A stretch of DNA of 64,000 bases from a phage, in sequence record PZ583739.1; one strand, 5' to 3'. The translations under genes and the position numbers were made by a program. The notes beneath the pieces are model-generated. The model was not told the DNA's origin. It did not search any database and saw only the letters and a program-made list of their open reading frames with translations. Shown here piece by piece: positions 3,679 to 61,597 of this stretch. How positions within the stretch are numbered: the first letter of the stretch is position 1; each line of letters begins with the position of its first letter.

Positions 3679-3881
3679 TTCGGTTCCCCATATCGCACAA
3701 ATTTAGGATGTTCGCAATAACCAGAATGAAAACCTTCACCCTTATGATTAGAACATCCTTTATTAGAACAGTACCACCAGTAATCATATTCGCAATTCAT
3801 TTCATCATTGCATAAAGCTGCGATTACTGGCCATTCACATTTTTCACATTTGGCCGTTTTAAGAATTCGGGCTTGGCTCAT
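3675..3881 (-). CDS. Cys-rich small zinc-binding protein
   Basis: Multiple CxxC/CxxxxC pairs in 68 aa. Confidence 0.4.
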   Translation of the reverse strand: MSQARILKTAKCEKCEWPVIAALCNDEMNCEYDYWWYCSNKGCSNHKGEGFHSGYCEHPKFVRYGEPK

Positions 3882-4332
3882 AATCCACCACTATTAAATC
3901 AATATCAGGAGTAAACATGTCGATTAATTTAGAAACCTTATCCCAATCGCCGCCAGCAATACCACAACCAATACGAGGAATATAAATTACCGGTTTAAAC
4001 AAAAGGGTTTCTGCCTGTAGATTTAATTCTATCATACAATTTACTAAAGCGCCATAATCAAGATTAGGGCCCGGTTCATATTGGGTGTACAAATTATAGC
4101 ACATACCAAACCCAGTAGGTTTATGTTTAAAAACAATAGACATATCACCGAGTTTTCCTCTGTAACCATAGTCGGTTGAGGTTTTATCTATTTCTAAAAC
4201 TTTTGGATAAGCCTTCGCCAACTGTCCAGCTACGCCAGAACCCATTGTGTGAAAGCAGTTGCAACCATGTGCAATAATATTGCCTTGAAGAAAGAGGGCG
4301 ACGATATCGCCCTTAATATACTGGGTAATCAT
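3859..4332 (-). CDS. macro-domain (ADP-ribose binding/processing) protein
   Basis: KGDIVALFLQGNIIAHGCNCFHTMGSGVAGQL and IPRIGCGIAGGDW match macro-domain signature regions. Confidence 0.6.
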   Translation of the reverse strand: MITQYIKGDIVALFLQGNIIAHGCNCFHTMGSGVAGQLAKAYPKVLEIDKTSTDYGYRGKLGDMSIVFKHKPTGFGMCYNLYTQYEPGPNLDYGALVNCMIELNLQAETLLFKPVIYIPRIGCGIAGGDWDKVSKLIDMFTPDIDLIVVDYEPSPNS

Positions 4333-4688
4333 TTAGAGTTCAATCCTCTATTATATGAATCCACTAACCTGTCAACCATACTGGTGCAGGCCGCCTTATA
4401 TTTTGCACTTGACAGAATGCAATCCATTTCAAATAGTTTCTTTTCATATTTGTTGGATAATACATTCTTTTTCAAAAGCGTATGTTCAACATCATTTTGG
4501 CCATCTTTATAGGCTGCGGTGAGCTTGGCACTGAACCGGATTACACAATCCACATTGCTTGATGCGCAATAATCTTTAGCCGTCCTCGTTGCATATTCTA
4601 CGATGCTGTTGTTGTCGTCGCTCTGTACTGAAGCTATTCCTCCCATGCTGAATACTAACCCTATGGCTAAAGTGATAACTCTTACCAT
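4329..4688 (-). CDS. secreted small protein
   Basis: N-terminal signal-peptide-like segment LAIGLVFSMGGIASVQS. Confidence 0.4.
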   Translation of the reverse strand: MVRVITLAIGLVFSMGGIASVQSDDNNSIVEYATRTAKDYCASSNVDCVIRFSAKLTAAYKDGQNDVEHTLLKKNVLSNKYEKKLFEMDCILSSAKYKAACTSMVDRLVDSYNRGLNSK

Positions 4689-4690
4689 TT

Positions 4691-5233
4691 TTAATCCACC
4701 GTTTTTAATAGGCCTCGTGATTTTAAGTAGTTAGCTTTTTCTAGGACCTGTGAAGCATACGTATTACCAGCTTTCACATTCCATCCTGCGTTATATGATG
4801 ATAGTGTTTTTCTTATATCCCCCTTATGAATATTCAACCAGTATGAAAGCTCAATATAAGCCCAGCGCGCACTGTTCTCTCTCTTGCTTATCATCTTGAT
4901 TATTTCTTTATCTGTCATTGTCCACCCAACCTGTTTCACGCGTTCGCGCACGGTTGGAAGATAATTTTGGAATATACCATATGCATGATGCTTATCTTTA
5001 TTTAATCCAGTATTAACCCCAGCAGAACTTTCCTGCCAGGTTAAACCAGCCATGATATATCCCAAACCATTACGTTGGTGTGGATTTTCTTTGTACTTGC
5101 CATTTTTCTGGAACTGCTCTCCAAACGCATAAGCATATTGGAGGTTCCCCATTTGTTCATTACTGAAAGTAGGCTCTACGCTATGGGCAGACATACTAAC
5201 TGTCAATAGTAAGGTGGCGATTACTTTTTTCAT
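4691..5233 (-). CDS. secreted lytic-transglycosylase-like (SLT domain) protein
   Basis: Signal peptide, then WQESSAG (catalytic Glu-Ser) and AYGIFQ resembling SLT motifs. Confidence 0.5.
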   Translation of the reverse strand: MKKVIATLLLTVSMSAHSVEPTFSNEQMGNLQYAYAFGEQFQKNGKYKENPHQRNGLGYIMAGLTWQESSAGVNTGLNKDKHHAYGIFQNYLPTVRERVKQVGWTMTDKEIIKMISKRENSARWAYIELSYWLNIHKGDIRKTLSSYNAGWNVKAGNTYASQVLEKANYLKSRGLLKTVD

Positions 5234-5243
5234 GAATTCCCCA

Positions 5244-5702
5244 TTAGATATAAATCACTTTTGTGCTAATTTTTCCTTCCAGACGATTAGAGTTAACAAA
5301 CGCCATACGACAACACATGGTCGGAGACTTCCCAGGAAGAGCTGGGTTAACTGTCATTCCTAACCATAGGTTCTTGTCTGTGATTTCCAGACGAAGTGGA
5401 CGGTAGTTCACATTCGGGTCAATTTGTGCTTCAACTTCCGGGAGCGGTTTCATCTCCAGGAATTCAACGATTTCTTTTACATGTGGTGTGATTTTTCCAA
5501 ACAAGTCAAAAACATATTGTTCATCAATTTCACGTTGGATTGCACGGTCCAACAGGTGCGGACTGTACTTAATGAAGAATGCCTCAAGGCCTGCTTCTTT
5601 ACAAGCCTTGTTGATAGCATTATTAATTTTGAGGAACTCCGTTTCAAAAATGCGACGAAGTTTATTGCGGCGAATGTAAACACTTGAATCGATAGTAGTC
5701 AT
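5244..5702 (-). CDS. regB: RegB site-specific endoribonuclease
   Basis: VYIRRNKLRR...HLLDRAIQREIDE...CRMA closely matches T4 RegB; start set at internal ATG with AAGGAG RBS. Confidence 0.8.
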   Translation of the reverse strand: MTTIDSSVYIRRNKLRRIFETEFLKINNAINKACKEAGLEAFFIKYSPHLLDRAIQREIDEQYVFDLFGKITPHVKEIVEFLEMKPLPEVEAQIDPNVNYRPLRLEITDKNLWLGMTVNPALPGKSPTMCCRMAFVNSNRLEGKISTKVIYI

Positions 5703-5758
5703 GATTATCTCCTTTTGTTTGATGGGATAATCATAACTCATTTCAACCTGCTTGTACA

Positions 5759-6338
<580 letters not shown>

Positions 6339-6342
<4 letters not shown>

Positions 6343-6572
6343 TTCACTTCCTCGCCAGTTGCGATATCATATTCTACCAAACGAAGGCCTTCAGTCCAAC
6401 CTTGCACGGAGATATAGGTAGTCGGGTAAATCATTTCTTTACCATTCCACCGACCGCCATCCCAGACTTCCAGAAAGTCTTGTTCACCTGGCCCATTAAA
6501 CCATTCAACAAATCTTTTCAGAGCTTCATCAGAGCCTTCAATTGTCAATTTAGACATATTTTTTCCAGTCAC
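6339..6572 (-). CDS. hypothetical protein (77 aa)
   Basis: ORF overlapping neighbour by 4 nt (coupled). Confidence 0.35.
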
Positions 6573-6849
6573 TAATTAATCGCACATCCTGGTCATAGGT
6601 CAGGAGGCTACGAGTGATAATACCCTTACACGGTCCAGAAATAAATTCCAGAGTAAAGTAAGGAACCAACTTCATCAAGCGAATACTCGGAGCAGTGCAA
6701 CGAAATCTGGACCCAATAAAAGGCCCAGACAAAAACACATACTCAAAGAAATTTGCTTTATTAAAGATTTCAAAATTCTTTACGAAATCTTCTGACCTAA
6801 CCTTTGGAATAAAATAGATTTGGTCAAAAAGCTCTTCATGGGTCATCAT
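6550..6849 (-). CDS. hypothetical protein (99 aa)
   Basis: ORF in early array. Confidence 0.35.
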   Translation of the reverse strand: MMTHEELFDQIYFIPKVRSEDFVKNFEIFNKANFFEYVFLSGPFIGSRFRCTAPSIRLMKLVPYFTLEFISGPCKGIITRSLLTYDQDVRLISDWKKYV

Positions 6850-7442
6850 TGCATTCCTATCACAAAGAACAGAGGACGTGTGGTTTGATTGGTTTCTTCA
6901 CATGATGCACGACAGCAATAATGCACAACCTTTATGTGGGCATCGTAAATCTTATCCATATCAGGTGTTTTAACAGGCTCATCAATTATATACAGAACCC
7001 GTGAAAGTGATAATCCACGGAATTTGCATGCAGTGTTACCAATAAAACTACGAACAGAATCAGTGTACAAACGGTGCTTAATACTTTCTGTATGGTTATT
7101 AAAATATTCCTTTCGGATTGCAGTAGCCGAAACATTAGCATATGCCGTGTTATTAGACAAAATAACAATAGAGCCGCCATCAGCTAACCATTCCGTAGCA
7201 AAAATGGATACTGCTTTAGTTTTACCAGATTGACGCCCACCATCAAGTTTTAAGGTGCAGCATTCTTTAAACAAGGTTTGTGAATCGGGTACATAAAACC
7301 CACTATTACAAATGTGTTCTACTCTAGCATCAGAATGGTTTGCAAAAGCATTCATCAGGGATAGATAACTACCGGTTAAAAACGTTTTCATAATTGTCTC
7401 TTTTAAGTGGTGGGGCCATTCCTTGGCACATAATTCGTCCAT
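6846..7442 (-). CDS. hypothetical P-loop-containing protein
   Basis: Walker-A-like GGRQSGKT; true start may be the internal Met. Confidence 0.4.
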   Translation of the reverse strand: MDELCAKEWPHHLKETIMKTFLTGSYLSLMNAFANHSDARVEHICNSGFYVPDSQTLFKECCTLKLDGGRQSGKTKAVSIFATEWLADGGSIVILSNNTAYANVSATAIRKEYFNNHTESIKHRLYTDSVRSFIGNTACKFRGLSLSRVLYIIDEPVKTPDMDKIYDAHIKVVHYCCRASCEETNQTTRPLFFVIGMQ

Positions 7443-54179: not shown

Positions 54180-54998
54180 ATGCTTAAAGAACAACTCATT
54201 GCCGAAGCTCAGAATATCGATGCTTCCGTTGCTCTCGATAGTATTTTCGAATCAGTTAATTTGTCCCCGGAAGCGAAAGCTACCTTCGGCACTGTATTCG
54301 AAGCTACCGTCAAGCAACACGCCATCAAACTGGCAGAATCTCACATTCACGCCATCGCTGAAAAAGCTGAAGAAGAAGTCGAAAAGAATAAAGAAGAATC
54401 CGACGAAAAAGCAGAGAAAAAACTGAAAGAATCTGCAGCTAAATTCCTGGACCACGTTGCTAAAGAATGGCTTGCTGAAAATAAACTGGCTGTCGACCGT
54501 GGCATTAAAGCTGACCTGTTCGAATCCATGTTCACCGGCATGAAAGAACTGTTCGTTGAGCACAACGTTGTTGTTCCGGAAGAATCTGTTGATGTTGTTG
54601 CAGAAATGCAGGAAGAACTGGCTGAACAGAAAGAAGAAACCGCTAACCTGTTCGAAGAAGTTTCTAAGCGTGATGCTTATATCAATTATGTCCAACGTGA
54701 AGTTGCGTTGACTGAAGCAACTAAAGACCTGACTGAATCTCAGAAAGAAAAAGTTGGTTCTCTGGTAGAAGGCATGGAATACTCTGATGCATTCGGTACC
54801 AAAATTGGCGCTATTGTTGAAATGGTTAAAGGTCAGGTAGAACCTACCGACAAACCAATCACCGAAGCCGCTATAAATAAAAATGTAGACGATGCTGCGG
54901 CACTGAATTACATTTCAGAAGCAGTTGAAGAAAAAGGCGCCAAGCCTACCCTGTCCTTCGCGGACTTGTCTGCTCTCGCAGCATCACGAATTTCTTAA
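54180..54998 (+). CDS. 22: prohead core scaffold protein gp22
   Basis: 272 aa helical acidic protein. Confidence 0.9.
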   Translation: MLKEQLIAEAQNIDASVALDSIFESVNLSPEAKATFGTVFEATVKQHAIKLAESHIHAIAEKAEEEVEKNKEESDEKAEKKLKESAAKFLDHVAKEWLAENKLAVDRGIKADLFESMFTGMKELFVEHNVVVPEESVDVVAEMQEELAEQKEETANLFEEVSKRDAYINYVQREVALTEATKDLTESQKEKVGSLVEGMEYSDAFGTKIGAIVEMVKGQVEPTDKPITEAAINKNVDDAAALNYISEAVEEKGAKPTLSFADLSALAASRIS

Positions 54999-55019
54999 TT
55001 TAATAAGGTTATACAACAC

Positions 55020-56579
55020 ATGAAAAAGAATGCATTAGTTCAAAAATGGTCCGCTCTGCTGGAAAACGAAGCTCTTCCGGAAATCGTTGGTGCTTCTAAA
55101 CAAGCTATCATCGCTAAAATCTTTGAAAACCAGGAACAAGATATTCTGACCGCTCCTGAATACCGTGACGAAAAAATCTCTGAAGCATTTGGTTCTTTCC
55201 TGACCGAAGCTGAAATCGGTGGTGACCATGGTTATGATGCTACCAATATTGCTGCTGGCCAGACCTCTGGTGCAGTAACTCAGATTGGGCCGGCAGTTAT
55301 GGGTATGGTTCGTCGTGCTATCCCGCATCTGATTGCGTTTGATATTTGTGGCGTACAGCCTCTGAACAACCCGACTGGCCAGGTATTTGCACTGCGTGCA
55401 GTATACGGCAAAGACCCTGTCGCTGCTGGCGCTAAAGAAGCTTTCCATCCGATGTATGCTCCGAACGCTATGTTCTCTGGTCAGGGCGCTGCTCAGACTT
55501 TTGAAGCACTGGCTGCAAGCAAAGTTCTGGAAGTTGGTAAAATTTATTCTCACTTCTTCGAAGCAACCGGTTCTGCACACTTCCAGGCTGTTGAAGCTGT
55601 AACTGTTGATGCTGCTGCTACCGATGCTGCTAAACTTGACGCTGCTGTTACCGCTCTGGTTGAAGCTGGTCAGCTGGCTGAACTGGCTGAAGGTATGGCT
55701 ACCTCCATCGCCGAACTGCAAGAAGGTTTTAACGGTTCCCAGGATAACCCGTGGAACGAAATGGGCTTCCGCATCGACAAACAAGTTATCGAAGCTAAAT
55801 CCCGTCAGCTGAAAGCAAGCTACTCCATCGAACTGGCACAGGACCTCCGCGCTGTTCACGGTATGGATGCTGATGCCGAATTGAGTGGTATTCTGGCTAC
55901 CGAAATTATGCTGGAAATCAACCGCGAAGTTATCGATTGGATTAACTACTCCGCACAGGTTGGTAAATCTGGTATGACCAACACCGTTGGCGCTAAAGCT
56001 GGTGTGTTTGACTTCCAGGACCCGATTGATATCCGTGGTGCTCGTTGGGCTGGTGAAAGCTTCAAAGCTTTACTGTTCCAGATTGATAAAGAAGCCGCTG
56101 AAATCGCTCGTCAGACCGGTCGTGGTGCAGGTAACTTCATCATCGCTTCCCGTAACGTAGTTAACGTGCTGGCTGCTGTTGATACTTCTGTTAGTTATGC
56201 TGCTCAGGGTCTGGGTAAAGGTTTCAACGTTGACACCACTAAAGCTGTGTTCGCTGGTGTTCTGGGTGGCAAATACCGTGTCTATATCGACCAGTATGCT
56301 CGTGCAGATTACTTCACCATCGGTTACAAAGGCGCTAACGAAATGGATGCTGGTATCTACTACGCACCATATGTTGCACTGACCCCGCTGCGTGGTTCTG
56401 ACCCGAAAAACTTCCAGCCGGTTATGGGCTTCAAAACCCGTTACGGTATCGGTATCAACCCGTTTGCTGACCCTGCTGCTCAGGCTCCGACCAAGCGCAT
56501 TCAGAACGGCATGCCGGACATCGTTAACAGCCTTGGCTTGAACGGTTACTTCCGCCGCGTATATGTTAAAGGAATTTAA
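55020..56579 (+). CDS. 23: major capsid protein gp23
   Basis: Long stretches identical to T4 gp23 (AEIGGDHGYDATNIAAGQTSGAVTQIGPAVMGMVRRAIP...). Confidence 0.97.
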   Translation: MKKNALVQKWSALLENEALPEIVGASKQAIIAKIFENQEQDILTAPEYRDEKISEAFGSFLTEAEIGGDHGYDATNIAAGQTSGAVTQIGPAVMGMVRRAIPHLIAFDICGVQPLNNPTGQVFALRAVYGKDPVAAGAKEAFHPMYAPNAMFSGQGAAQTFEALAASKVLEVGKIYSHFFEATGSAHFQAVEAVTVDAAATDAAKLDAAVTALVEAGQLAELAEGMATSIAELQEGFNGSQDNPWNEMGFRIDKQVIEAKSRQLKASYSIELAQDLRAVHGMDADAELSGILATEIMLEINREVIDWINYSAQVGKSGMTNTVGAKAGVFDFQDPIDIRGARWAGESFKALLFQIDKEAAEIARQTGRGAGNFIIASRNVVNVLAAVDTSVSYAAQGLGKGFNVDTTKAVFAGVLGGKYRVYIDQYARADYFTIGYKGANEMDAGIYYAPYVALTPLRGSDPKNFQPVMGFKTRYGIGINPFADPAAQAPTKRIQNGMPDIVNSLGLNGYFRRVYVKGI

Positions 56580-56600
56580 TCCTAGATTAAGTTAAATAAA

Positions 56601-56630
56601 AAGGGACCCTTGAGGTCCCTTTCTTGTTTT
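56601..56630 (+). terminator. hairpin terminator after gp23
   Basis: gggacccttgaggtccc followed by a T-rich run. Confidence 0.6.
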
Positions 56631-56911
56631 CATACCATACCATTTAAATGAACTTCTACCCGGCGCTTGATGAGGTCTCTGAAGTTAACATTGTTTTCTT
56701 GAAGTTTCAACCAGTTACCATTTTTATCTTTAGTGTGAGTAGAATAATTACCATTCCACCAGAAATCAGTGTCATATGCTAAGTTTTCATATTTTTTAAC
56801 TAGTTTGTTCAGAGCATTACCATTAACACCATTTGGGTATTTGTTGACCAAGGCAATAACTTCAATTTCCAGATTTTTAAAGGTGTTCAGAAGGAAAGTT
56901 GCTTTGTTCAT
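56630..56911 (-). CDS. hypothetical protein (93 aa) inserted between 23 and 24
   Basis: Minus-strand ORF with its own early promoter/leader cassette. Confidence 0.45.
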   Translation of the reverse strand: MNKATFLLNTFKNLEIEVIALVNKYPNGVNGNALNKLVKKYENLAYDTDFWWNGNYSTHTKDKNGNWLKLQENNVNFRDLIKRRVEVHLNGMV

Positions 56912-56952
56912 TTTTAAACTCCAGGTTTTGTTTGTTAACTCAGTATGGAATC

Positions 56953-56982
56953 ATTATGTCTTATCTTAATCTGGTTGTAAAC
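56953..56982 (-). promoter_or_regulatory. early promoter (GTTTACA -35, 17 nt spacer, CATAAT -10)
   Basis: Read on the minus strand; followed by the conserved leader gattccatactgagttaacaaac. Confidence 0.45.
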
Positions 56983-56988
56983 AACTTT

Positions 56989-56996
56989 TATAAATA
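56989..56996 (+). promoter_or_regulatory. late promoter TATAAATA (gene 24)
   Basis: Exact TATAAATA about 26 nt upstream of the gp24 start. Confidence 0.5.
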
Positions 56997-57021
56997 AAGT
57001 ATATCACAAAAGGAAATAGCA

Positions 57022-58302
57022 ATGGCTAAAATTAACGAACTCTTAAAAGAGTCGACCACGACCACAAGTTCTTCGATTGGTCGACCGAATCTAGTAGCTT
57101 TAACCAGAGCTACGACTAAACTGATTTACACCGATTTAGTAGCACAACAGCGCACATCCCAGCCACTGGCGGCATTATACGGTCTTAAATACCTGACTCA
57201 GCAAGATGAATTATCTTTCCAGACTGGTGCAACCTATTCTGGTGCAGTATCAGCAAAAGACCGTGCGACCATTCCGGTTTTTGTTGCTGGCACAGTTTAT
57301 GCTAAAGACGATTTGTTCCAGTTTGAAAATGTAGTTTATAAAGCGCTGGTAGCAACTCCATTTGCTGGAGCAACGGGCGATGAGTATGACCAGCTTCAAG
57401 AAGCGATGGTTAAATTGACCATCCGTATTATGTCCGAAGCTGCAATCACCGAACGTTTTGAAGGACCGCAGGAAGTCGAAATTGCCGAAGCTAAATTTTT
57501 GGTTAACAAATGGAATGCTCCGGTTAAATCTCGTAAGCTGAAAAGCACTGTTACAGTGGAACTGGCCCAGGACCTGGAAGCAAACGGTTTTGACGCTCCA
57601 AACTTCCTGGAAGACCTGTTAGCTACCGAAATGGCTGATGAAATTAACAAAGATATCCTGCAATCCCTGGTAACAGTTTCCAAGCGTTATAAAGTTGCTG
57701 GGCTCTGTGATGATGGCCTGATTGACCTGTCTTATACCAACTCTCCGGAAGCTTCACGCAAGTTGTACGAAATCATGTGTGAGATGGTCTCCCATATTCA
57801 GCGGGCAACTTCTTACACCGCAACATACGTTGTTGCTTCTACGCGTGTAGCTGCAGTTTTGGCTGGTTCCGGTTGGTTGAAGCATCGTCCACAAGATGAG
57901 AAATATCTCTCCGATAATGCGTATGGTTTCTTGGATAATGGTCTACCGCTTTATTGCGATACGAACACTCCATTTGATTATGTGACTGTTGGTGTTAAAG
58001 AAGATTTCGGTGGGAAAGAGATGGTGGGTTCACTGTTTTATGCACCTTATACCGAAGGTCTTGACCTGGAAGACCCTGAACATGTTGGTTCGTTCAAAGT
58101 TGTCGTTGACCCAGAAAGTTTGCAGCCGTCTATTGCATTAATGGTTCGTTATGCGTTAGCAGCTAACCCTTATACAGTGACTGCTGATGATAAACAAGCT
58201 CGTATTATTGATGCAACAAATATGGATTTGATGGCAGGACGTTCAGATATGTCTGTACTGCTTGGTGTGAAACTTCCTAAAGTTCTGACTGAAATAAATT
58301 AA
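57022..58302 (+). CDS. 24: capsid vertex protein gp24
   Basis: 426 aa; gp23 paralog. Confidence 0.92.
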   Translation: MAKINELLKESTTTTSSSIGRPNLVALTRATTKLIYTDLVAQQRTSQPLAALYGLKYLTQQDELSFQTGATYSGAVSAKDRATIPVFVAGTVYAKDDLFQFENVVYKALVATPFAGATGDEYDQLQEAMVKLTIRIMSEAAITERFEGPQEVEIAEAKFLVNKWNAPVKSRKLKSTVTVELAQDLEANGFDAPNFLEDLLATEMADEINKDILQSLVTVSKRYKVAGLCDDGLIDLSYTNSPEASRKLYEIMCEMVSHIQRATSYTATYVVASTRVAAVLAGSGWLKHRPQDEKYLSDNAYGFLDNGLPLYCDTNTPFDYVTVGVKEDFGGKEMVGSLFYAPYTEGLDLEDPEHVGSFKVVVDPESLQPSIALMVRYALAANPYTVTADDKQARIIDATNMDLMAGRSDMSVLLGVKLPKVLTEIN

Positions 58303-58330
58303 AAAGGGACCTTCGGGTCCCTTTATTTTT
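58300..58330. terminator. bidirectional hairpin terminator between gp24 and rnlB
   Basis: aaaaagggaccttcgggtccctttatttt between convergent genes. Confidence 0.6.
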
Positions 58331-59336
58331 ATTCACTAACTAATGCAATCCAAACATGTCTTAATGTTTCTCTTACATTTGTGATGAGTTGCTTTTTAAC
58401 TTCAACAGGATTTTCCGTCAGGGACAATTCAAGACCTTCGCGCCCCGCTTCTTCCAGAATATCTTGGACTGTTAACCCCATTACCTTTCCAAAATCCTTC
58501 GGTGTTACTTCCCCAATTTTACTGATAACATTGTTGATACGGTTAACAGTCACATAATCAGTGAAATTCCACAGTAAATCCATATCATTTTGGCTCAGAA
58601 CCACTGCAGCCTTAATAGGCTTATCAGACTTTTTCTTTTCACTGAATTTAGAGTTCTTACATTTAATCGCTACACGCTCGCCGTTAGGTAACCATGCAGG
58701 AACATCAGGTTTTAATACAAATCCTTCAGCAGTGAATACTTTACCTTCCGCCTTTGCATCAAAATCAGTGGTATTTGCTGTAGTCAAACCTGTGTTATCC
58801 ACTGTAAAATTGTAATCAGGGACAACAGAATCCAGGTCATTAGGGAGCTTAATTAATTCTTCAAAACTACCTGTAGCCAGGCGCGGTGCAACCTTAAACT
58901 TATGGATAATACAGAATGCTTCCATCAAGGTGTCAGTCAGGACGGATTCAAAACCATCTTCTTTAGTAACGCGGATATCAAATACATAAAAATCTTTATC
59001 ACCGTAATCCACATTCTTCTGGATACCTGCCCCGGCAAACTCACCATAAATCTGGTATGCCTGGTAATTAATATCCTGCAAAAGTTTCTGCACAGATTTA
59101 ATAGAATCAGCATAATTCTTTAATACAATTTCATAACCATAGAAATCTTCTGCAGGCAGGATAGGTCCAGTGCGTTTCGCACATGTCACATTGTCTTGTT
59201 CAATGATTAATGAAAAGTTGGTACCATGAATCTTCTCGCGAGCTACCCATTCACCGCTGGTGAAGCCTTGCAGGCGAATCTTTTCAATGAACTTGTTGTT
59301 ATAGTGATTTTCAAGGCTGTTGTATTTCTTAAACAT
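58329..59336 (-). CDS. rnlB: RNA ligase 2
   Basis: [19 protein letters not shown]...[13 protein letters not shown] with the KxHGxN ligase motif; matches T4 Rnl2. Confidence 0.9.
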
Positions 59337-59434
59337 AATCTCTCACTTTTGATGTTATAAATATCATTATAAATTAGACCCATTATACTTTCTTTCTCTG
59401 AAAGGAATTAATAGTCACAAAGGGGTCTAGAACC

Positions 59435-59461
59435 ATTATACCACAATTTTATTTGAAGCAA
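59435..59461 (-). promoter_or_regulatory. putative middle promoter (MotA box TTGCTTCA plus TATAAT)
   Basis: Minus strand reads tTTGCTTCA, 13 nt, TATAAT upstream of rnlB. Confidence 0.35.
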
Positions 59462-59467
59462 AAAGGG

Positions 59468-59731
59468 TCAGAATTTTACATACAGCATTGGCTTGGCTTC
59501 TTGCCAATCATAATTCCAGGTAAATGATGTAAATTTTTCTGCTCGCAGAAAATCAGATATCTTCGCGCGGTTTCCTTCTTCATACTCTTTTTCAGAAACT
59601 GCCATATTAACAGCATCTTTGCCATTCTCGGCGGCGGCAATAGCCACTTTGCGAAATATAGCAATAAAGTCATTTGCAACTTTATCTTGGGATTCTTTTG
59701 CGATTTGACGTAGTTCTTCTGCGAATGTCAT
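59468..59731 (-). CDS. hypothetical protein (87 aa)
   Basis: ORF upstream of rnlB. Confidence 0.4.
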   Translation of the reverse strand: MTFAEELRQIAKESQDKVANDFIAIFRKVAIAAAENGKDAVNMAVSEKEYEEGNRAKISDFLRAEKFTSFTWNYDWQEAKPMLYVKF

Positions 59732-61589: not shown

Positions 61590-61597
61590 TATAAATA
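61590..61597 (+). promoter_or_regulatory. late promoter TATAAATA (uvsW)
   Basis: Exact TATAAATA about 29 nt upstream of the uvsW ATG. Confidence 0.5.

Follow-up and report, generated by a model that had tools for sequence, protein, structure and literature searches.

The window analysed here is a 64,000-nucleotide stretch of phage DNA, whose region 56300-57300 is 100% identical to Escherichia phage DK-13 (Gaprivervirus, Tevenvirinae) and 99% identical to Shigella phage SP18. Two head genes on the plus strand border a small slot in this region: gene 23, for the major capsid protein, on the left (55020-56579; a 519-aa ORF annotated as major head protein in DK-13), and gene 24, for the capsid vertex protein, on the right (57022-58302; a 426-aa ORF annotated as head vertex protein). 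The slot holds a 93-aa gene on the minus strand (56630-56911, with its ATG at 56911), which belongs to phrog_6003 and is an ortholog of RB69ORF188c and VR7ORF190c. Upstream of this gene, on its own strand, a Shine-Dalgarno GGAG (56919-56922) lies 7 nt 5' of the ATG, followed by the -10 hexamer CATAAT (56953-56958) and the -35 element GTTTACA (56976-56982, containing the TTTACA hexamer) of a candidate early (sigma-70) promoter, and then by an AT-rich stretch (56983-57005) that may act as an UP element. On the plus strand, the late promoter TATAAATA of gene 24 is found at 56989-56996, 25 nt 5' of the gene's ATG, and an AGGA at 57011-57014 precedes the same ATG. Gene 23 and the small gene converge on a common bidirectional intrinsic terminator (56598-56624); a second bidirectional terminator, detected by a hairpin scan (58303-58324), separates gene 24 from rnlB, which is placed on the minus strand at 58329-59336 by gene order. 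The preliminary description had put the minus-strand GTTTACA-17 nt-CATAAT element, the 93-aa gene and the plus-strand late promoter for gp24 exactly where we find them.

The hairpin at 56598-56624 is GC-rich and lies between an A-run and a T-run, with a U-tract on both transcripts; the plus-strand tract is interrupted (UUUCUUGUUUUC) and the minus-strand tract reads UUUUUAUUU. RNA folding gives -15.9 kcal/mol on the plus strand and -17.0 kcal/mol on the minus strand (z-scores of -2.7 and -3.3, respectively). Given these folds and U-tracts on both strands, the hairpin can end the gene 23 transcript as well as the antisense transcript of the small gene. An equivalent hairpin follows gene 23 in all relatives examined. 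A known RNA family was also considered for 56400-57200 and rejected, as the matches were sub-threshold only and all lay over the terminator hairpin. The stem of the second terminator (AAAGGGACC/GGTCCCTTT, 58303-58324) hardly differs from that of the hairpin at 56600-56622, and by its sequence this terminator would insulate the small gene from minus-strand transcription out of rnlB.

TATAAATA occurs 20 times in the 64-kb window against 5.2 expected, and none of 100 shuffles reaches 20. The copies are strictly sorted by strand, with five on the minus strand (2625-26299) and fifteen on the plus strand (36252-61597); none was found on the minus strand of the window beyond position 26299. This sorting suggests that the direction of late transcription switches somewhere between 26.3 and 36.3 kb. 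Two of the plus-strand copies (59356-59363 and 61590-61597) lie beyond rnlB, where the annotated genes up to ~62.3 kb (hypotheticals, hoc and inh) are all on the minus strand. Of the relatives examined, only TH57 lacks the copy before gene 24, having AATAAATA instead, and a gp55 homolog is annotated in DK-13. In its exact TATAAATA, its position 25 nt 5' of a late structural gene and its conservation across genera, this copy matches the gp55/gp33/gp45-dependent late promoters of T4. It is known here from its sequence, and is standard except for its overlap with the AT-rich region of the divergent early promoter.

That early promoter candidate has a 17-nt spacer and a -10 hexamer, CATAAT, that agrees with TATAAT at five of six positions, the first T being replaced by C; it is preceded by AGA, and the extended -10 TGn is not present. 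Its -35 element, GTTTACA read from 56982 to 56976, fits the TTTACW and GTTTAC forms of T4-type early promoters, and 11 of 12 positions agree with the T4/PST early consensus TTTACW-N17-TAYWAT (PMC4122927). T4 early promoters are of the UP/-35/TGn/-10 type (PMC2988021). In the window, 20 of the 23 bases at 56983-57005 (-40 to -60) are A or T, and this putative UP element overlaps the late promoter on the opposite strand, the gap between the -35 element and the late-promoter core being 6 bp (56983-56988). Transcription is predicted to start near 56946, and no structure is predicted in the resulting 5'UTR of the small gene (0 kcal/mol, RNA fold). The same promoter form stands 5' of early genes elsewhere in DK-13, in one case with CATAAT, before an annotated ADP-ribosylase gene. 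In a sigma-70 scan of 54900-59500 the candidate ranks first, with 10 of 12 matches, among seven promoter-like sites, a number that is not above chance (8.3 expected). A search of the whole 64-kb window for GTTTAC-N16-18-NATAAT gives a single match, and at least one match is seen in 20 of 100 shuffles. As this single match is non-significant, the window alone cannot settle the candidate early promoter.

Occupied and empty 23/24 slots of relatives were compared, the former in DK-13, a JS98-like locus, C6, PhAPEC2, T4, TH15 and CGG4-1 (n=7; five lineages and three occupant arrangements) and the latter in teqhad (Tequatrovirus), LilPanda (Jiaodavirus), PEi20 (Kanagawavirus) and TH57 (Gaprivervirus; n=4). 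TTTACA-N17-NANNAT is found 5' of the first occupant gene in 7/7 occupied slots and 0/4 empty ones; the four empty slots contain the hairpin, a T-run and the late promoter only. By chance, as estimated from shuffles of the same size and composition, it would arise in 0.2-0.4% of such ~100-nt regions. Ahead of the small gene, the element reads GTTTACA...CATAAT in DK-13 (Gaprivervirus), GTTTACA...TGT TACTAT in the JS98-like locus and C6 (Dhakavirus), and GTTTACA...TGA TACTAT in PhAPEC2 (Mosigvirus). Ahead of segD, it reads ATTTACA...TGA TATTAT in T4 (Tequatrovirus), GTTTACA...TATAAT in TH15 (Gaprivervirus), and GTTTACA...TGA TAAAAT in CGG4-1 (Gelderlandvirus). A TGn thus stands directly 5' of the -10 hexamer in the versions of four relatives (Dhakavirus, Mosigvirus, T4 and CGG4-1). 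The window version, with CATAAT and no TGn, is the weakest of the set, and would be a comparatively weak promoter.

Between lineages, hardly any alignment is possible for the 17-nt spacers or the leaders. The promoter is credible because its hexamers and 17-nt spacing are kept in occupied slots and not in empty ones, and from this pattern we conclude that the minus-strand element may be taken as a genuine sigma-70-type early promoter; the lineages are related, and conservation of the -35 element beside the late promoter is in part shared ancestry and not independent evidence. The phylogenetic footprinting of occupied versus empty slots hence supports the original reading of back-to-back early (minus) and late (plus) promoters.

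The slot had also been equated with the position of segD in T4, and this holds: T4 segD occupies this interval too, is likewise antisense, and has a hairpin after gene 23. The two units share a TTTACA-17 nt-TANNAT-type element whose -35 lies 5-6 nt from the TATAAATA of gene 24; in T4 it is ATTTACA-N14-TGA-TATTAT, 20 nt before the segD ATG (NC_000866, ~107233-107289, minus strand). They differ in that the occupant in the window is unrelated, with 93 aa and no GIY-YIG domain, and that T4 has TGn and TATTAT where the window has CATAAT without TGn. With regard to timing, uvsX and e are middle or late genes. In time-resolved omics of T4 (PMC9697503 Table S2), segD is assigned to the early class by RNA and to the middle class by protein, this "early" RNA class being a broad one that includes uvsX and e and not a start-site map. 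From the sequence, together with the RNA class of T4 segD, we infer early timing in the window phage, and we also infer the activity of the promoter and the order of evolutionary events discussed below. As for the transcription of segD, a 2010 review of T4 mobile elements (PMC2988022) reports that no promoter specific to segD emerged from bioinformatic searches, and proposes read-through.

The 23-24 interval was compared across T4-like genomes, as the preliminary description had called for, with a concatenated gp23-end and gp24-start query that sampled 1,794 records. Its content varies among four states. It is empty in the majority of the sampled T4-like genera, where it measures ~85-125 nt (about 90 in most); this group comprises Tequatrovirus relatives, Jiaodavirus and other Klebsiella phages, Kanagawavirus, one Enterobacter phage and one Acinetobacter phage. 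The small gene alone gives an interval of ~420-442 nt in Gapri-, Dhaka- and Mosigvirus. A homing endonuclease gives one of ~805-817 nt in CGG4-1 and Manna, and segD is alone in the slot in T4, TH15 and CGG4-1. Finally, the small gene and segD are stacked, with one promoter and one terminator, in UP19 and IME341 and, judging by coordinates, in the LF82 series and JM10 (Dhakaviruses); in stacked slots segD begins 3-4 nt past the stop of the small gene. SegD-like proteins are found in 119 records at E<=1e-40, and the endonucleases encoded by T4, TH15, UP19 and CGG4-1 are orthologous to one another, with 58-72% identity. The 93-aa gene, which had been called "extra", does occupy a variable slot, but this phage is not alone in having it: it is what the slot usually holds in Gapri-, Dhaka- and Mosigvirus, with homologs in 238 phage records.

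Within Gaprivervirus, TH15 has segD in place of the small gene and TH57 has neither. Since relatives in the same genus hold either segD or nothing, the interval is a real hotspot for insertion, deletion and replacement. Of the proposed cassette replacement at a hotspot, the hotspot therefore stands, but strict alternation does not, as several Dhakaviruses stack both genes. In an alignment of DK-13, TH15 and TH57 the right-hand breakpoint falls at the -35 element: TGTAAACAACTTTTATAAATAAAG... is the same in DK-13 and TH15, and the -10 hexamer, leader, ORF and hairpin differ. The sequences point to the early/late promoter junction as a shared border, behind which cargo would be exchanged, stacked or deleted. 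In TH57, the apparent deletion junction leaves AATAAATA in place of TATAAATA, which may impair the late promoter of gene 24 in that phage. When IMG/VR was scanned for loci of greater diversity, only nine were obtained, among which VR20, VR25, VR26, VR5, IME341 and 005 are isolate genomes already in GenBank. In EC-F1 (Pseudotevenvirus; locus 1201-1836), a Seg-like endonuclease ~40% identical to SegD is found in the same interval, on the plus strand like the capsid genes.

The 93-aa protein matches phrog_6003 with E=3.6e-47 (PHROGs; the family is unannotated), and pN/pS of its gene is 0.10-0.27 within Gapri- and Dhakavirus; from these two results, the small ORF is a real gene under purifying selection. 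Orthologs in the RB69ORF188c/VR7ORF190c family are 37-100% identical, occupy the same position and orientation, and are syntenic in Dhakavirus and Mosigvirus. The window copy is identical to those of SP18 and RZ, and is no different in kind from RB69ORF188c, VR7ORF190c or phrog_6003 at large. Beyond this family, little was recovered. A word-indexed protein search gave three matches, and an exhaustive profile search of 1.84 billion representatives gave only ~6 true small homologs (clusters). The long profile matches were rejected as Ig-repeat, zinc-finger or low-complexity repeat proteins, and so was the P0006 match, which covers a short C-terminal stretch only and has an unrelated N-terminus. 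No Pfam family is matched by the protein, and a sequence-profile search of the PDB yielded nothing below E=0.29. No GIY-YIG domain was found by Pfam or by BLASTP against T4 SegD (E=3.1), and the idea that the small protein is a SegD remnant was rejected on the latter value.

The AlphaFold model (pLDDT 76) has a helix-helix-hairpin-helix topology, as predicted for a small soluble protein. A structure search of the PDB with this model yielded nothing at E<0.1, and the sole match in BFVD is an 88-aa unnamed protein that is possibly a family member. The phrog_6003 family is tiny, phage-only and without detectable fold or domain relatives. Our best guess, by analogy with most small early T4 ORFs, is that the protein is a non-essential early accessory (host-interaction) protein. 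Lit/Gol and CapRel are host defences that sense the major capsid protein; speculatively, the 93-aa early protein could be kept beside gene 23 to counter such a defence. A 34%-identical homolog is present in ABPH49 (locus 2501-2767), an Acinetobacter phage filed under Vequintavirinae, where its neighbours are small hypothetical genes and capsid genes are absent from the vicinity. Judging by this setting, the 93-aa family moves between unrelated contexts.

Among known arrangements, PeSL cassettes (Arbiol 2010, Comeau 2014; PMC4122927) share with this unit a T4/PST-type early promoter, a Shine-Dalgarno sequence and the start of a small ORF, a stem-loop bounding the ORF, and indels at the locus between close relatives. 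They differ from it in that no stem-loop lies directly 5' of the promoter here, where the divergent late promoter and the gene 24 leader are found instead, that the slot lies inside a conserved head-gene block and not in a hyperplastic region, and that there is no tandem PeSL pair. The unit fails the PeSL definition because of the missing stem-loop before the promoter. It was likewise rejected as a homing-endonuclease cassette, there being no GIY-YIG domain.

Taking the locus as a whole, we consider it likely that the 23/24 interval is a self-contained antisense single-gene unit with a T4-type early promoter, in a slot of variable content. Unmodified host sigma-70 RNA polymerase would read TTTACA-17 nt-CATAAT, with the AT-rich stretch 5' of it, and the transcript would run through a short unstructured leader and GGAG into the 93-codon gene, and then to the hairpin that would end both this unit and convergent gene 23. 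For gene 24, transcription would begin anew past the terminator of gene 23, at the gp55-type late promoter TATAAATA. The two promoters would thus share ~45 bp and be used at different times, the host holoenzyme acting early and the gp55/gp33/clamp-modified polymerase late. Promoter and terminator would bound a slot that may be empty or hold the small gene, the GIY-YIG endonuclease gene segD, or both in series.

It could be argued that the minus-strand motif is non-functional, and that the small gene is read through from minus-strand middle or late promoters 5' of rnlB, 24.2 or inh, whose transcripts would cross gene 24 in antisense. The 2010 review, having found no promoter for T4 segD, suggested such read-through for that gene (PMC2988022), and the window element invites the same view, its -10 being imperfect and without TGn and its single match non-significant alone. 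We nevertheless regard read-through as improbable. The bidirectional terminator at 58303-58324 stands between rnlB and gene 24, the hexamers and their 17-nt spacing persist in all seven occupied slots despite diverged spacers and are missing from empty ones, and both protein and RNA of T4 segD are detected, the RNA being classed early (PMC9697503). Nor does it seem at all probable that minus-strand transcription here starts from a middle promoter dependent on MotA/AsiA, or from a late one, so that the gene would not be immediate-early. T4 SegD protein is classed as middle (PMC9697503), and where T4 homing endonucleases have been assigned a promoter of their own, it is a middle or late one and never an early one (PMC2988022); in the window, however, there is no TGCTT box at -30, on which ground a middle (MotA) promoter was rejected, and no minus-strand TATAAATA nearby. 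Furthermore, MotA boxes take the place of the sigma-70 region 4 element (PMC2988021), and that element is present here as a canonical TTTACA 17 nt from the -10 hexamer.

A different objection concerns history and not expression: the small gene and its promoter may be ancestral to T-even-like genera, with segD having homed in downstream and T4, TH15 and CGG4-1 having lost the small gene, in which case there was stacking and deletion but no swapping of cassettes. We give this account a substantial chance, if one short of even. The two genes do coexist 3-4 nt apart in UP19, IME341, the LF82 series and JM10; the -35/late-promoter junctions of T4 (TGTAAATAACTTTATAAATA) and of the small-gene phages are homologous; and the empty interval of TH57 (locus 3780-3861) resembles a TH15-type locus after loss of segD and the early promoter. 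Against it, no small-gene remnant is found between promoter and segD in T4, TH15 or CGG4-1, whose leaders are only 20-25 nt, and DK-13 and TH15 differ in terminator and -10 hexamer along with the ORF, as whole-segment replacement predicts. The spacing from the -35 element to TATAAATA also differs in CGG4-1. Returning to the self-contained unit, we tentatively suggest a stronger form of it, in which early promoter, late promoter and hairpin make up a fixed "expression socket" in the capsid operon that has repeatedly captured unrelated cargo, the same element being the missing promoter of T4 segD; it is a possible reading that we would not yet favour.

The locus is ordinary T4-like genome architecture, with one mildly new point, the conserved promoter for the segD slot, and the current picture of T4 gene regulation is unchanged by it. 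It does indicate that the conserved T4-like head-gene block holds a small polymorphic slot, equipped with an early promoter and a terminator of its own. Such a slot lends itself naturally to non-essential cargo, and hence to engineered insertions. It also offers a simple answer to the question of T4 segD transcription left by the 2010 review (PMC2988022), and flags phrog_6003, a conserved early-type ORFan family, as a candidate host-interaction gene.

Gene 24 itself varies beside this slot. Two tandem gene 24 paralogs are found in TH57 (3862-6425), UP19 (4871-7294) and CUA3 (4197-6805; all in locus coordinates), versus one in the window. In TH15 and TH57, the first gp24 departs from the DK-13 protein soon past the N-terminus, and in a megablast comparison gene 24 gave no match to TH57; at the 3' end of gene 23, identity to TH57 is ~97%. 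Divergent gp24 alleles thus lie beside a conserved gene 23 3' end, and in this sense the slot marks a mosaic boundary. The two terminators that flank the small gene and gene 24 are near-repeats 1.7 kb apart, and could be recombination substrates for gene 24 duplication or loss.
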